Of a stretch of 64,000 nucleotides of DNA, positions 40,271 through 56,445 are shown piece after piece (position 1 is the first letter of the stretch; every line of letters begins with the position of its first letter). The stretch is from Myxococcales bacterium. GTDB taxonomy: Bacteria > Myxococcota > Myxococcia > Myxococcales > JAJYLH01. The notes under the pieces are model-generated. The model searched no databases and was not told the origin of the DNA. It worked only from the letters and a program-made list of their open reading frames with translations. Position numbers and translations under genes: made by a program. The DNA lies in the NCBI GenBank assembly GCA_021787845.1, contig JAJYLH010000001.1, forward strand, positions 238,736 to 302,735, given 5' to 3'.

Positions 40271-40308
40271 CGGATCGGACCGATCGGTCGGATCGGTCGG
40301 ATCGGACT
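40271..40308. repeat. palindromic intergenic repeat, copy 1 (core GACCGATCGGTC)
   Basis: cggatcggaccgatcggtcggatcggtcggatcggac, about 37 nt 3' of the thiC stop. Confidence 0.8.
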
Positions 40309-40344
40309 GGCCGCTTGCCGGCGCGCGAAAGTCCGGCCAGCCGA

Positions 40345-41727
40345 TCAGCCGAGCGCGCCCGGAAGCGGTGTGCCCAAAGCGGCAGCGCTCTCGGCCGGCT
40401 CGTTCTTCGCTTCGCCCAGGTGCCGGTGGACCTTCATCGAGCAGAACCGGGGCCCGCACATCGAGCAGAACTCGGCGCTCTTGAAGGCGTCCTGCGGAAG
40501 CGTCTCGTCGTGCATCCGGCGGGCGGTCTCGGGGTCGAGGGAGAGCGTGAACTGGGTGTTCCAGTCGAAGGCGTAGCGGGCGCGGCTCAAGGCGTCGTCG
40601 CGGTCGCGCGCGCCCGCCCGCCCGCGCGCGACGTCGGCGGCGTGCGCGGCGATCTTGTAGGCGACCATCCCCTGGCGCACGTCGTCCAGGTTCGGCAGGC
40701 CGAGGTGTTCCTTGGGCGTCACGTAGCAGAGCATGGCGGCACCGTACCAGCCCGCCATCGCCGCGCCGATGGCGCTCGTGATGTGGTCGTAGCCGGGCGC
40801 GATGTCGGTGACGAGCGGGCCGAGGACGTAGAACGGCGCCTCGTCGCACCAGGCGGCTTCGAGGCGGATGTTCTCCTCGATGAGGTGCATCGGCACGTGG
40901 CCGGGGCCTTCGACCATCACCTGGACGTCGTGGGCCCAGGCGCGGCGGGTCAGCTCGCCCAGGGTCTTGAGCTCGGAAAGCTGCGCCTCGTCGTTCGCGT
41001 CGGCGAGGCAGCCGGGCCGGAGCGAGTCGCCGAGCGAGAAGGCGACGTCGTACTTCTTGAAGATTTCGCAGAGGTCGTCGAACCGTTCGTAGAGCGGGTT
41101 CTCGCGGTCGTGGGCGAGCATCCACTCCGCGAGGAGCGCGCCGCCGCGGCTGACGATGCCGGTGAGCCGGTGCGCTACCAGGGGGAGGTAGCGCTTCAGG
41201 ACACCAGCGTGGATGGTCATGTAATCCACGCCCTGCTTCGCCTGCTCCTCGATGACGCCGAGGATGTCGTCGGCCGTCAGGTCGTCGACCCGCCGCACTC
41301 GCTGCACCGCCTCGTAGATCGGCACGGTCCCGATGGGCACCTTCGACGCGCGCAGGATCGCGTCGCGAATGCGGGGGATGTCGCCGCCGGTGGAGAGGTC
41401 CATCACCGTGTCGGCGCCGAGCCCGATGGCGACCTTGAGCTTGCGAATCTCCTCGTCGATGTCGCTCGAGACCTGGCTGTTGCCGAGGTTCGCGTTGACC
41501 TTGCAGCGGGCGGCGACGCCGATGGCCATCGGCTCCGCCTCGGGGTGGCGCATGTTCGCCGGAATGATCATCCGGCCGCGGGCGACCTCGCTGCGCACGA
41601 GCTCCGGCGAGAGCTTCTCGCGCGAGGCGACGTGCTGCATCTCCTCGGTGACGACGCCGGAGCGCGCGAAGTGCATCTGGGTGACGTTCGGCTGGCCCTC
41701 GCGGCGGCGGACCCACTCGTGGCGCAT
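40345..41727 (-). CDS. thiC: phosphomethylpyrimidine synthase
   Basis: Starts [30 protein letters not shown]. The radical-SAM-like C-terminal CxxCxxxxC ([11 protein letters not shown]) and the conserved ThiC core are present. A GGGAG RBS lies upstream. Confidence 0.92.
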
Positions 41728-41817
41728 CGGAAAGACTCCCGCCGGTGATGGAGGCCGGCACGAAAGGGTCAGCGAGATACCGACGGGATGCCGGCAAGTC
41801 AAGGCGGGCGCGCTGGC

Positions 41818-42465
41818 TCAGCCCTTCGGGCGGCGGCGCTTCGGCTTCTTAGGAGCGGACTCGGGCTTCGGCACCGCTCCCGCCAGGTCCGCCGGCCACA
41901 ACAGGTCGAGGTCGAGCTCGATCGCGTCGAACGGCTGCGCGCGGACCTTGCCGCCTTCGCTGAAGAACGACCGCTGGGCCCATTTTCCGCGGGCCAGCTC
42001 CCAGACGGTCAGCGTCTTCTCCAATGGCTCGAGGAACCACAGCCAACGCACGCCATGGCGCGCGTAGTACGGCATTTTCTCGACACGGTCGTAACGTTTC
42101 GTCGAGGGCGAGAGAACCTCGCATACCCAGTCGGGTACTACGCGAATAGGCTCGTCTGGGGATTGTGCGGCGAAGCGCTCGCGCTTCCATCCGGCAACAT
42201 CGGGGTCGGCCTCATCGCCCGGCTCCAACTCGACGCCTGGCTCAACCAAGATGACCCAGCCTCCAGGACCACTGACACCGAGGTCGAACCCGGAGTCGAT
42301 CAGTGTTCCGAGCCGCGCCTCAGCGTGCGAGTGACGTGGGCGAGGACGCGGGCTGACGTGCAACTCGCCGTCGAGAATCTCGCCGACCACGTTTTCGGGA
42401 AGAGACTCGAACACGGCGCGAACCGTGCGGGCGACCTTGCGCACGGCGGCAGTGGACGACCGCAT
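41818..42465 (-). CDS. Uma2-family (DUF820) putative endonuclease, paralog 2
   Basis: 215 aa with PDWVCEVLSPSTKRYDRVEKMPYYARHGVRWLWFLEP; it is a clear paralog of 17910..18506. Confidence 0.7.
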   Translation of the reverse strand: MRSSTAAVRKVARTVRAVFESLPENVVGEILDGELHVSPRPRPRHSHAEARLGTLIDSGFDLGVSGPGGWVILVEPGVELEPGDEADPDVAGWKRERFAAQSPDEPIRVVPDWVCEVLSPSTKRYDRVEKMPYYARHGVRWLWFLEPLEKTLTVWELARGKWAQRSFFSEGGKVRAQPFDAIELDLDLLWPADLAGAVPKPESAPKKPKRRRPKG

Positions 42466-42501
42466 CTGACGCCTCCGTCTCGAAGAATAGCGCGAGGTCG
42501 C

Positions 42502-54628: not shown

Positions 54629-54629
54629 C

Positions 54630-55238
54630 ATGATCGCCTACCTGCGCGGCCAGCTTCTGGAGAAAGCCCCGGACGGGGTGGTCGTCGACGTCCACGGCGT
54701 CGGCTACAAGGTCGCGCTCTCGCAAAGCTCGCTCAAGGCGCTGCCGGACGCCGGCGCTCCCGTGGAGCTGCGCATCCACACCCACGTGCGCGAGGACGCC
54801 ATCCTCCTGTTCGGCTTCACCTCTCCCGAGGAGCAGGAGCTCTTCGGACACCTGACGACGGTCAGTGGCGTGGGGCCCAAGCTCGCGTTGAACATCCTCT
54901 CGGGCCTGCCGGCACCGGACCTCGCGCACGCCATCGCGAGCAACGACCTGGCACGGCTGACCAAGCTCTCCGGCGTCGGGAAGAAGACCGCCGAGCGGCT
55001 GGTGGTCGAGCTCGCGGACCGGCTGAAGACGAGTGCGCTCCTGCTCAGAGGGACCGCAAGCGCCAAGCCGAAGGCGAAGGCGGCCGGCGACGACCTGGTC
55101 AGCGCGCTCACGAACCTGGGCTACCGGCCGGCCGACGCGGAGCGGGCGGCGAGCGCGGCGCGGGAGAGCCATCCCGACGCCGAGCTGGCGGAGCAGGTCC
55201 GTGTCGCGTTGCAGATGTTGCTCGCGAAGGCGGTCTGA
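54630..55238 (+). CDS. ruvA: Holliday junction branch-migration protein RuvA
   Basis: Starts MIAYLRGQL, with the HhH motifs GVGPKLA and GVGKKTAERL. Confidence 0.9.
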   Translation: MIAYLRGQLLEKAPDGVVVDVHGVGYKVALSQSSLKALPDAGAPVELRIHTHVREDAILLFGFTSPEEQELFGHLTTVSGVGPKLALNILSGLPAPDLAHAIASNDLARLTKLSGVGKKTAERLVVELADRLKTSALLLRGTASAKPKAKAAGDDLVSALTNLGYRPADAERAASAARESHPDAELAEQVRVALQMLLAKAV

Positions 55239-55270
55239 CGAGCCGAGCATGGTAGGCTTTCGCCGCTCCG

Positions 55271-56311
55271 ATGCCTGACGCCCTCGCCTCCGAACCGCCC
55301 CGCGAAATCGACGCGACCGCGCTGGGCGACGACGTCCAGTTCGACCGGTCGCTGCGGCCGCGCACCTTCGAGGACTACGTCGGGCAGCCGGCGCTGGTGG
55401 CGAACCTCAAGGTCTTCGTCCAGGCGGCGCGGCGGCGGGGCGAGCCGCTCGACCACGTGCTGTTCTGCGGCCCGCCGGGTCTCGGGAAGACGAGCCTCGC
55501 CCACGTCATCGCCCACGAGTTGGGGGCGGACCTCCAGGTCACCAGCGGCCCTGCCGTGGAGCGCAAGGGCGACCTGGCGGGCATCCTGACCAACTTGAAG
55601 AAGGGCGACGTCCTCTTCATCGACGAGATCCATCGGCTCAACCCGGCCATCGAGGAAAATCTCTATCCGGCGATGGAAGACTTCGTCTTCGACCTGGTGA
55701 TCGGCGAGGGGCCGGGCGCGCGCAACATGAAGCTGCCGCTCCAGCCGTTCACGCTGGTCGGCGCGACCACGAGGACCGGGCTCTTGACCGGCCCGTTGCG
55801 CGACCGCTTCGGCATCGTCAACCGGCTCGAGTACTACGCGCCCGAAGAGCTCGCGCGGATCGTCACCCGGTCGGCGCAGATTCTGAGCATCGAGCTCGAC
55901 CCGTCCGGCGCCGAGGAAATCGCCCGCCGCTCCCGGGGCACGCCGCGCATCGCGAACCGGCTCCTCCGGCGGGTACGCGATTTCGCCGAGGTCGAGGGCA
56001 ACGGCGTCGTCAGCCGGGCGATGGCCGACCGTGCCTTGGGGCGCCTTGAGGTCGACGCGCGCGGGCTCGACCCGATGGACCGGAAAATCCTCCGCACCAT
56101 CTGCGACAAGTTCGGGGGGGGTCCGGTAGGGCTGGAGACCATCGCCAGCGCTGTCGGAGAGCAGGCGGACACGGTCGAGGACGTGTACGAGCCGTTCCTC
56201 TTGCAGGAAGGCTTCATCCACCGGACGCCGCGGGGCCGGGTGGCGACGCCGCGCGCGTTCGAGCACCTGGGCCTGCGGCCGCCGCAGCCGAACCAGGGCG
56301 CGATGTTCTAG
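55271..56311 (+). CDS. ruvB: Holliday junction DNA helicase RuvB
   Basis: [12 protein letters not shown], Walker [16 protein letters not shown], and the RuvB C-terminal winged-helix domain. Confidence 0.95.
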
Positions 56312-56394
56312 GTCGGCTGCCCAGGGGGTAGCCGTGACCGCTCTTGCTCACCCGTGCTGGGGGCGGCCTGCGGGTGCCCTCGACCCGAAGCCAT

Positions 56395-56445
56395 TCGCGA
56401 TCAGACCGATCCGTCCGATCCGACCGATCGGTCCGATCCTCGCGT
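56395..56445. repeat. palindromic intergenic repeat, copy 4
   Basis: cgcgatcagaccgatccgtccgatccgaccgatcggtccgatcctcgcg, lying between the convergent ruvB and lon stops. Confidence 0.8.

Follow-up and report, generated by a model that had tools for sequence, protein, structure and literature searches.

Four sites in the window, as we call the whole 64-kb stretch of DNA analysed here, are arrays in which a 9-bp unit, GATC-S-G-W-C-S, is repeated head to tail 2.7-4.7 times, and they appear to be members of a dispersed family of short tandem arrays. Intergenic arrays of the same unit are found in several distant phyla and in tailed-phage late operons, yet none occurs in about 92 kb from the nearest relatives of the window organism. 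We lean towards regarding the arrays as a dispersed nonamer minisatellite that is driven by slippage, tolerated, and possibly used as punctuation between cistrons or at 3' ends. They are very unlikely to be RAYT-mobilised REP elements and are not canonical intrinsic terminators.

Anatomy and setting of the four arrays

A first-pass annotation had reported four palindromic, REP-like repeats just 3' of stop codons. All four are present essentially where it placed them, and they form a true repeat family outside genes. The palindromes are real, but the annotation missed the 9-bp tandem structure that is found at every site. Tandem Repeats Finder returned a period of 9 at all four, with 4.3, 3.9, 3.2 and 4.7 copies in arrays 1 to 4, and a periodic-consensus scan of the 64 kb returned exactly these four arrays and none beyond them. 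The arrays and the genes around them are as follows.

Array 1: 40267..40307, no strand assigned, about 4.3 units of GATCSGWCS: GGATCGGAC CGATCGGTC GGATCGGTC GGATCGGAC
Array 2: 44755..44792, no strand assigned, about 3.9 units: GATCAGACC GATCCGTCG GATCGGACC GATCGGTC
Array 3: 51074..51102, no strand assigned, about 3.2 units: GGACCGATC GGACCGATC GGTCCGACC
Array 4: 56398..56439, no strand assigned, about 4.7 units: CGATCAGAC CGATCCGTC CGATCCGAC CGATCGGTC CGATCC
Sigma-54-dependent response regulator: 38723..40213, minus strand, Response_reg, Sigma54_activat and HTH_8 domains, downstream of array 1
thiC (Radical SAM ThiC): 40345..41802, minus strand, upstream of array 1
glyS (glycyl-tRNA synthetase beta subunit): 42502..44661, minus strand, true start ATG 44661, downstream of array 2
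Small ORF without a Pfam match, about 134 aa: 44870..45274, minus strand, start codon uncertain, upstream of array 2
purC (SAICAR synthetase): 50060..51004, plus strand, identical to P0001, 314 aa, upstream of array 3
PilZ-domain gene: 51184..51861, plus strand, downstream of array 3
ruvB: 55271..56311, plus strand, converges on array 4
lon protease gene: 56472..59015, minus strand, start codon uncertain (58922-59015), converges on array 4

The placement 3' of stop codons was borne out for all four arrays, at distances of 32-86 nt. Array 1 lies 37 nt past the thiC stop and 53 nt ahead of the response-regulator ATG (40213), with both genes on the minus strand. Array 2, also among minus-strand genes, is 77 nt past the stop of the small ORF, which is conserved (a 135-aa gene in the relative L114 matches it in position), and 93 nt ahead of the glyS ATG (44661). 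On the plus strand, array 3 is 69 nt past the purC stop and 81 nt ahead of the PilZ-domain gene ATG (51184), while array 4 sits between convergent genes, 86 nt past the ruvB stop (the gene ends at 56311) and 32 nt past the lon stop (56472-56474). Array 2 is open in all frames and therefore supplies a spurious N-terminal extension of glyS (...RPIGPIRRIGLIGL...), as the annotation had recognised. Arrays of this unit are open in six reading frames and so produce false N-terminal extensions, of which glyS is one example.

Each copy had been credited with a perfect palindrome of 12-14 bp. The 12-mer GACCGATCGGTC is indeed exact in all four, but the 14-mer GGACCGATCGGTCC is exact in array 3 only. 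Similarly, the near-identity claimed for copies 2 and 4 is real but extends over 34 of 36 nt and not about 45 nt. Array 4 also matches array 1 in inverted orientation (91% identity), and arrays 1 (inverted), 2 and 4 have in common the order of their variable letters and the rare GATCAGACC unit. The flanks of the four window arrays are unrelated, with no conservation outside the arrays.

A position matrix built from 145 arrays gave six essentially fixed positions (G, A, T, C, G, C) and three at which variation is confined to C/G or A/T. The unit is self-complementary under cyclic shift. Because GATC and S-G-W-C-S are both dyad-symmetric, the arrays are quasi-palindromic, and palindromes such as GACCGATCGGTC, which drew attention to these sites, are made automatically by the unit skeleton. 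Palindromic SGATCS contexts were under-represented (137 vs 248), which speaks against selection for hairpins.

We give almost no credence to chance or to the ordinary GATC/CCGG bias of a 70% GC genome as the source of the arrays. The 8-mer CCGATCGG alone occurs at its expected frequency in the window (7 observed vs 5.9 expected), as such a bias would have it; since it is not enriched, the excess belongs to the array and not to the oligomer. That excess is large: the 12-mer, with up to one mismatch, has 8 matches in the window against 0.77 expected, a count reached in none of 100 shuffles, and GATCSGWCSGATC has 9 against 0.07. Each of the four arrays also lies between genes (p about 2e-4).

Distribution, placement and copy-number change

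More than 111 loci of species genomes carried nonamer arrays; PVC or Hydrogenedentota made up 58% of these loci, and Acidobacteriota and Desulfobacterota were frequent as well. Among viral contigs, 48 carried the array motif versus 3, 3 and 3 for three composition-matched controls, an excess of about 16-fold. Density reached 8 arrays per 7.5-kb phage contig, and the window holds four loci within 16 kb. True coding repeats, for example (DPT)n and (PIG)n, contribute some of the cross-phylum signal; a 9-bp unit spans three codons, and arrays persist in frame within tolerant protein linkers. At the other loci, arrays within a locus were no closer to one another than arrays of different genomes (likeness 0.64 vs 0.62).

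Host arrays were intergenic in 82 of 121 classifiable cases, compared with 19% non-coding DNA (p = 2e-31). Convergent gaps bore arrays more often (20/65) than co-directional gaps (52/344, p = 0.004) or, at p = 0.06, divergent gaps (10/62). Arrays in convergent gaps had median gaps of 8 and 18 nt, and the median distance from array to upstream stop on viral contigs was 7 nt. Proximity to stop codons was strong in the phage contigs; in host loci it was weakly significant given start-codon uncertainty and, with our crude gene caller, lost significance when the earliest possible starts were assumed (29 vs 23). The arrays had no sense-strand bias relative to transcription.

In three verified tailed-phage structural modules, most of the spacers that separate a stop codon from the following ribosome-binding site were filled by arrays, those on both sides of the major-head gene included. 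Filling gaps within structural modules, these intercistronic arrays must be read through. Likewise, the distance from the end of the array to the next start codon was 11-25 nt in several host operons and in phage late operons; this leaves no room for a promoter, and transcription must therefore pass through the array.

Comparison of related loci showed that arrays gain and lose whole 9-bp units through slipped-strand mispairing. Loci L130 and L135, whose flanks are 91-95% identical, differ by exactly one unit, and L119, L132 and L133 have about 8 units where L163, with flanks 98-99% identical, has one proto-unit. Five relatives of the window organism (RuvB 80-86% or PurC 63-64% identity) had no arrays in the roughly 92 kb covered, which suggests that array presence in the window organism is a lineage-specific gain. 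Together with the shared order of variable letters in arrays 1, 2 and 4, this absence points to copying between loci.

Folding and the competing explanations

In the window the arrays with their flanks can form imperfect hairpins of -31 to -45 kcal/mol (z about -3 in 3 of 4), but fold stability is unselected elsewhere. The 131 non-coding arrays from other genomes were less stable, by a mean of 7 kcal/mol, than the same skeleton with random S/W letters; 69 host arrays were less and 22 more stable than such versions, as were 36 and 4 viral arrays, respectively. Folding of non-coding arrays was also indistinguishable from that of their own S/W-permuted versions, and many arrays consist of direct repeats only and pair little. 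Hairpin strength in the arrays is not under selection. As for the terminator role that had been suggested, 40000-57000 holds 10 terminator-like sites, of which none coincides with an array, no T-run follows any of the four, and the U-tract of an intrinsic terminator is thus lacking. Against Rfam 15, the sole window match at gathering score was one tRNA, and in 40000-57000 no match at an E of 10 or less overlapped an array.

In the slippage reading that we favour, strand or template switching inside the self-complementary array would scramble unit orientation. The arrays persist where added DNA is harmless, in post-stop spacers and particularly in convergent-gene gaps and operon intercistronic gaps. 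Those in the window would belong to the thiC, small-ORF, purC, ruvB and lon transcripts, at the 3' end or between cistrons, and would then fold into imperfect hairpins. By analogy with REP elements, the most plausible effect of these hairpins would be to hinder 3'-to-5' exonucleases or to dampen read-through, an analogy that sits poorly with unselected hairpin strength and no U-tract. Slippage also accounts for the growth of arrays but not for the recurrence of one nonamer across phyla or the seeding of new loci, and this recurrence demands either a trans-acting factor common to these organisms or a strong mutational process that they share.

A trans-acting factor is the basis of an alternative that we regard as possible but unlikely, namely that the arrays are double-stranded DNA sites for a candidate protein recognising GATC plus the G.C pair. 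It could act as a transcriptional roadblock or a stoperator-like repressor, be one of the nucleoid proteins, or be a factor linked to GATC methylation, and would be common to, or passed horizontally between, PVC, Acidobacteriota, Hydrogenedentota, Desulfobacterota, some Myxococcota and their phages. The dyad symmetry of the fixed positions and the exclusive C-to-G or A-to-T swaps at the variable ones are expected if base-pair type, and not orientation, is read; the missing strand bias, the unselected hairpins and the excess of one motif across phyla and phages are also consistent with such a site. Mycobacteriophage stoperators resemble the placement of arrays beside stop codons in phage late operons. 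However, the 64-kb window encodes no Dam-like methyltransferase or obvious partner, its GATC outside the arrays is unremarkable (280 sites, only 15 within arrays), W-to-S unit variants also exist (21 viral stretches), and variable copy number and in-frame tolerance within proteins fit neutral DNA equally. Less probable again are hairpin-only terminators, factor-independent and acting in both directions at ruvB/lon; such terminators, without a U-tract, have been reported in high-GC bacteria. Arrays do follow stop codons, are enriched in short convergent gaps and, in the window, give stable hairpins, but the missing T-runs, the many arrays that pair little and the transcription that must cross arrays just ahead of start codons all argue against termination.

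We consider it very unlikely that the arrays are REP/BIME palindromes mobilised by a RAYT encoded elsewhere in the genome; the first-pass annotation had likened their placement to that of REP/BIME-type elements. The roughly 48 ORFs of the window include no Y1_Tnp or other transposase, and none lies beside arrays in the other loci sampled. The arrays are extragenic, 3'-proximal, multi-copy, partly palindromic and in both orientations, arrays 1, 2 and 4 resemble copies of one sequence type, and their absence from relatives is as after an invasion; against this stand a 9-bp tandem unit with no GTAG/CGTC tag or defined stem-loop, its identity across phyla and phages, and hairpins weaker than those with random S/W letters. 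Slightly less probable still is an origin as scars of a cut-and-paste transposon, in which 9-bp duplications at the symmetric target TCSGWCSGA remained after excision and end-joining. IS4-family transposases such as IS10 and IS50 prefer odd-length palindromic 9-bp targets, a type to which the unit conforms, and the arrays grow in 9-bp steps. Yet about 1.2 Mb of loci contained no insertion sequence with terminal inverted repeats bracketed by units, no transposases adjoin the arrays in the loci sampled, and duplication alone gives no C/G and A/T scrambling between neighbouring units.

Comparison with known repeat systems

REPs are 20-40 bp stem-loops whose super-families are defined by an unpaired GTAG/CGTC tag, the GTAG type being linked to RAYT genes (PMC3733652). 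GTAG is absent from the four window arrays, CGTC occurs in them only as an interchangeable in-unit variant of CGAC, and a 9-bp direct repeat takes the place of the classical 20-40 bp palindrome with a 5-13 bp stem and loop. Extragenic, multi-copy placement is shared with REP elements (4/4 window arrays and the intergenic majority in other genomes), as are shortness, convergent or co-directional gaps, both orientations, mRNA hairpins and lineage-specific invasions. REP elements differ in being species- or genus-specific and often head-to-head dimers, whereas the array unit spans phyla and phages. A MITE or insertion-sequence derivative was rejected on the unrelated flanks and the lack of terminal inverted repeats bounded by duplicated units in the same 1.2 Mb, and a CRISPR array because the units are 9 bp and contiguous with no spacers (vs 23-50 bp repeats with unique spacers).

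The STRR heptamer arrays of heterocystous cyanobacteria are dispersed, mostly non-coding and without an associated gene. To our knowledge they have no known function. The arrays described here likewise place one short unit in tandem at many dispersed, mostly non-coding loci, which makes them an analogue and not a member, since STRR units measure 7 bp, lack self-complementarity and are restricted to a single group of cyanobacteria, whereas our unit is 9 bp, GATC-centred, dyad-symmetric and found in several phyla and phages. Intergenic multicopy direct-repeat families are also found in Geobacter bemidjiensis, and our array-bearing loci include Desulfuromonadales/Geobacter MAGs (L008, L032, L046, L099); GATC nonamer strings were absent from the text of that repeat paper's supplements.

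HIP1 (GCGATCGC) is, like the array motif, a GATC-centred palindromic word; it is vastly over-represented and conserved across a phylum (cyanobacteria). It differs in being a solitary octamer mostly inside genes, whereas the arrays are tandem and mostly intergenic; the skeleton C-S-GATC-S-G cannot spell the octamer, which is absent from the four arrays. The function of HIP1, long unexplained, has begun to be connected with methylation and DNA exchange. Stoperators sit in short intergenic gaps of phage operons, and DUS are often inverted pairs after genes. Both, together with USS, resemble the arrays as short motifs at gene ends or in intergenic gaps, many per genome, but they are single asymmetric sites with a known bound protein, confined to one phage cluster or bacterial family, whereas the arrays lack orientation bias.

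REP, HIP1, DUS and STRR are each lineage-confined, and the study of each opened up particular biology, among it RAYT transposases, methylation and transformation, and DNA uptake receptors. One proposition, which we doubt, is that the arrays are a conserved cis-acting signal whose factor is shared or exchanged among the phyla and phages named above, acting as punctuation or recombination linkers. If true, this would be a second HIP1-like or DUS-like system of unusually wide host range; punctuation would mean a protein roadblock or RNA-processing site, and linkers the exchange of gene modules. Because the arrays vary in 9-bp steps, they might also be used as markers for typing strains in phyla that are poorly studied.

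Four tandem nonamer arrays in the window

The four sites in the window, which the first-pass annotation had described as palindromes, are tandem arrays of a 9-bp unit, GATC-S-G-W-C-S (S is C or G, W is A or T), whose fixed positions are dyad-symmetric. Tandem Repeats Finder assigned a period of 9 to all four, with 4.3, 3.9, 3.2 and 4.7 copies in arrays 1 to 4, a periodicity that the earlier description had overlooked. A periodic-consensus scan of the 64 kb returned these four arrays only.

Nonamer arrays in the window, with adjoining letters
40267-40307, array 1: ...GAC GGATCGGAC CGATCGGTC GGATCGGTC GGATCGGAC TGG...
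44755-44792, array 2: ...CC GATCAGACC GATCCGTCG GATCGGACC GATCGGTC TCA...
51074-51102, array 3: ...G GGACCGATC GGACCGATC GGTCCGACC GG...
56398-56439, array 4: ...C GATCAGACC GATCCGTCC GATCCGACC GATCGGTCC GATCC TCG...

Word counts confirmed that the sites form a real repeat family. The 12-mer GACCGATCGGTC matched exactly at all four, and with up to one mismatch it occurred 8 times in the window versus 0.77 expected; GATCSGWCSGATC occurred 9 times versus 0.07 expected. Since CCGATCGG by itself was at its expected count, ordinary GATC/CCGG oligomer bias does not account for the family. The perfect palindrome reported for each site holds for the 12-mer, but the 14-mer is exact in copy 3 only. Likewise, the reported near-identity of copies 2 and 4 stands at 34 of 36 nt but does not extend over the ~45 nt claimed. 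Copies 1 and 4 are 91% complementary. No larger element surrounds the arrays, because the flanks of the four sites are unrelated. The variable letters are mostly common to copies 1 (inverted), 2 and 4, as is the rare unit GATCAGACC, and this sequence likeness suggests copying between loci within the window. In a wider sample there was no signature of within-genome copying, with array similarity of 0.64 at the same locus versus 0.62 between genomes (p = 0.26).

Genes beside the arrays, assigned from codon-position GC and Pfam
40345-41802, - strand, thiC, precedes array 1
ATG at 40213, - strand, sigma-54 response regulator, follows array 1
44870-45274, - strand, small conserved ORF, precedes array 2
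ATG at 44661, - strand, glyS, follows array 2
50060-51004, + strand, purC, precedes array 3
ATG at 51184, + strand, PilZ-domain gene, follows array 3
stop ending at 56311, + strand, ruvB, converges on array 4
stop at 56472, - strand, lon, converges on array 4

We confirmed the placement 3' of stop codons: the nearest upstream stop lies 37, 77, 69 and 86/32 nt from arrays 1 to 4, and the next start 53, 93 and 81 nt beyond arrays 1 to 3. The window is ~88% coding and all four arrays are intergenic (p ~2e-4), so within the window the copies are not scattered at random with respect to genes. The unit contains neither a start nor a stop codon in any frame, and ORFs are therefore read across the arrays. 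The open frames through array 2 thus produce the false N-terminal extension of glyS (RPIGPIRRIGLIGL), as the first-pass annotation had proposed.

The window belongs to an uncultured bacterium of 70% GC whose closest named relatives by PurC and RuvB are Myxococcales MAGs. Five relatives (RuvB 80-86%, PurC 63-64% identity) had no arrays in ~92 kb, even at a relaxed threshold, and the window arrays are therefore a lineage-specific gain.

Distribution, anatomy and slippage of the family

The arrays have a patchy distribution over several phyla and also occur in phages. Species-representative genomes, scanned once with GATCSGWCSGATCSGWCSGATC and with taxa read from record titles, yielded at least 111 loci. 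Among the matches listed were at least 54 loci from PVC bacteria (Planctomycetota 18, Verrucomicrobiota 20, Lentisphaerota 15, unclassified 1), at least 15 from Acidobacteriota, at least 10 from Hydrogenedentota, at least 8 from Desulfobacterota in the broad sense, and a few from Armatimonadota, Chloroflexota and others; those listed from Actinomycetota, Bacillota and Alphaproteobacteria were mostly coding low-complexity repeats. Three of the loci listed came from an isolate, Oligosphaera ethanolica DSM 24202. An assembly artefact is unlikely because several matches lie on chromosome-level or long contigs.

In IMG/VR viral contigs 48 stretches matched GATCSGWCSGATCSGWCSGATC, and the control patterns GATCSCWGS, CATGSGWCS and GATCWGSCW matched 3 stretches each. 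A W-to-S variant matched 21, many of them coding. A BLAST comparison of a synthetic array with cultured phages and plasmids gave no match, a result that carries no weight given the low-complexity filter. A period-10 pattern picked up arrays of the pentamer (GGATC)n, a related simple repeat. Sixteen viral stretches (L171-L186) carry such pentamers, (GGATC)n or (GATCC)n with n of 5-7 or more, mostly outside obvious coding context; they may be a sister simple repeat, given that GGATC + GGWC is one way of reading the nonamer.

In O. ethanolica the arrays are built into higher-order tandem repeats of ~45-72 bp (L061 259-406, L110 2869-3029, L091 6184-6270), each unit combining a nonamer array with an invariant spacer, e.g. 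CGTCCGCGAGAGAAGGCAAAAGACAGCT or CGCGAAAAAGACCGAT. A Chthoniobacterales MAG (L080 1-5004) has six arrays within 5 kb of a type III CRISPR-Cas (RAMP) cluster, positioned between, and apparently inside, the genes of that region. Two loci from DATKVG01, labelled Candidatus Bathyarchaeia archaeon (L052, L073), carry typical bacterial-style intergenic arrays between convergent genes, which could reflect either the mis-binning of a bacterial contig or a genuine presence in archaea.

We examined the anatomy of the unit in 145 host arrays among the loci listed. The G, A, T, C, G and C positions were at least 99% fixed, while the two S positions had C:G ratios of ~52:42 and 53:36, with A or T in a few percent, and the W position had A:T of 54:45. 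All eight possible forms of the S-G-W-C-S spacer were present. On a given strand adjoining S letters tended to match, producing runs of C type or of G type, and the palindromic contexts CGATCG/GGATCC were under-represented (137 versus 248). Arrays were mostly 3-4 units long, with a maximum of 24. An origin of the 9-bp period in the nicking geometry of an AlwI-type enzyme, GGATC(4/5), was rejected, as GGATC occurred at 80% of GATC sites versus 75% expected, with no enrichment.

The arrays are subject to slippage. Two near-identical viral contigs (L130 and L135) differ by exactly one unit, and three others (L119, L132, L133) have ~8 units where a fourth (L163) has one proto-unit, between flanks that are 98-99% identical. 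Whole-unit differences of this kind are direct evidence of 9-bp slippage.

Placement, folding and interpretation

The family is intergenic and prefers the 3' side of genes and convergent gaps. With a self-trained caller based on codon position, crude above all for start codons, 82 of 121 classifiable host arrays among the loci listed were intergenic versus 19% non-coding DNA (p = 2e-31), as were 38 of 78 viral arrays versus 18% (p = 6e-10). On the same crude calls, arrays occupied 20 of 65 convergent gaps versus 52 of 344 co-directional (p = 0.004) and 10 of 62 divergent ones (p = 0.06). In convergent gaps they abut both stops, at median distances of 8 and 18 nt. In co-directional host gaps, 34 arrays were closer to the upstream stop versus 18 to the called start (p = 0.04), a difference that vanishes against the earliest possible start (29 versus 23). 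The proximity was robust in viral contigs, at 27 versus 7 for the called start and 25 versus 10 for the earliest; there the median distance from stop to array was 7 nt. In many cases the stop codon itself opens the array (TAGATC..., TGATC...).

Arrays called as coding were mostly D-[P/R]-[T/S] repeats; some are real protein linkers, and others probably reflect read-through by the gene caller. NRPS genes of Acidobacteriota MAGs carry an in-frame array (RSDRSDGSDRSV...) in one particular loop of each successive adenylation domain, flanked by the motifs ...EAVVVV and LVAYV; with one array per module, the arrays are ~3.2 kb apart.

Arrays in NRPS adenylation-domain loops
L013: 97-136, 3436-3469, 6638-6679
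L031: 345-374, 6731-6780
L009: 1033-1064

Three phage contigs (L158, L164, L128) are tailed-phage structural modules by PHROGs, with major head, portal, protease, terminase and tape-measure proteins. Most of their gaps are filled by an array running from 0-8 nt past the stop to just before the next ribosome-binding site, and the major-head gene has arrays on both sides. Because there is no space for promoters, transcription must cross these arrays, which therefore cannot be strong terminators in those operons. Related phage contigs carry a homologous N-terminal coding repeat, PIGPIGPI (L127 4143-4164, L151 655-676, L207 2236-2257); a single synonymous position, the same one in both of its units, varies (GGT versus GGG), which suggests concerted change of the tandem units.

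Folding of the window sites with their flanks gave energies between -31 and -45 kcal/mol, and three of the four had z ~ -3. The minimum free energy of 131 non-coding arrays equalled that of their own S/W-permuted versions and averaged 7 kcal/mol weaker than random-S/W versions; 69 host arrays among the loci listed were weaker versus 22 stronger (p = 5e-8), and 36 viral arrays versus 4 (p = 7e-10). This randomisation rules out selection for hairpins: folding is no stronger than in the controls, so hairpin potential is an unselected by-product of the dyad-symmetric skeleton. No T-run follows the array at any of the four window sites, and a terminator consensus scan found no terminator-like site overlapping any array. 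Rfam gave nothing at the arrays in gathering or permissive searches. Sense strands showed no G/C bias (23 G-rich versus 25 C-rich in hosts, 8 versus 8 per locus in viruses), so the C- or G-rich bias predicted for a Rho-utilisation (rut) or CsrA-type role is absent. Pairing with the 16S rRNA 3' tail (GGAUCACC) also looked unpromising; by inspection it requires a 2-nt bulge, and phage arrays are less complementary in orientation.

The REP/BIME-like character proposed earlier is not supported, as the defining REP features, a GTAG/CGTC tag and stem-loop, were sought and are absent from the arrays. Pfam found no Y1/RAYT (REP-associated tyrosine transposase) or other transposase, and no Dam-type methyltransferase, among ~48 window ORFs; no transposase lay beside arrays in the other loci sampled. 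A search of ~1.2 Mb of loci for transposon scars, as identical units 0.5-4 kb apart with inner inverted repeats, gave only array-to-array matches. The arrays fell outside REP, MITE, CRISPR, intrinsic terminators and HIP1. With HIP1 they share a palindrome centred on GATC. Cyanobacterial STRR heptamer arrays are among their closest analogues. Other close analogues are REP/BIME (PMC3733652) and the intergenic direct-repeat families of Geobacter bemidjiensis (PMC2996986); the nonamer was not in the text of the Geobacter supplements, nor was the unit described in open-access full text searched by 9-mers or descriptive terms.

We place the arrays with dispersed short tandem repeats, among which their taxonomic and phage distribution is unusually wide. 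Template switching inside the self-complementary repeat would scramble unit orientation and give exactly C-to-G and A-to-T changes, and arrays would survive where DNA is under least constraint. In transcripts they would, like REP elements, act as imperfect hairpins at 3' ends or between cistrons. The main alternative, that they are candidate double-stranded-DNA sites of a putative protein, is compatible with a dyad-symmetric skeleton that varies only within S and W, shows no strand bias and is conserved across phyla, but no partner protein was found and we consider it improbable.

Other features of the window

The window is a housekeeping region (pilMNOPQ, efp, metG, thiC, glyS, purC, ruvCAB and lon by Pfam, ~48 ORFs). 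At 44712-44735, in the stretch separating array 2 from the glyS start codon, a perfect GC hairpin is followed by TTTTT (CCGTGCGCGCACGG TTTTTCGCGG); as a + strand terminator it would stop antisense transcription only, because both adjoining genes are on the - strand. No TPP riboswitch for thiC was found in the window at the Rfam gathering score or in 40000-57000 at E<=10, and a tRNA gene at 35431-35513 was the sole gathering-score match. A Uma2-family ORF (putative restriction endonuclease, 41818-42465) lies directly upstream of thiC, whose upstream region is 41803-42100, and a second is at 17910-18506. Adjoining the type IV pilus cluster pilMNOPQ (11286-16853) is a 1047-aa TPR-repeat protein gene (3293-6436, - strand), which contains a 90-bp tandem repeat (4470-4849, 4.2 copies, 92% matches) and a 30-bp repeat (5236-5343, 3.6 copies).
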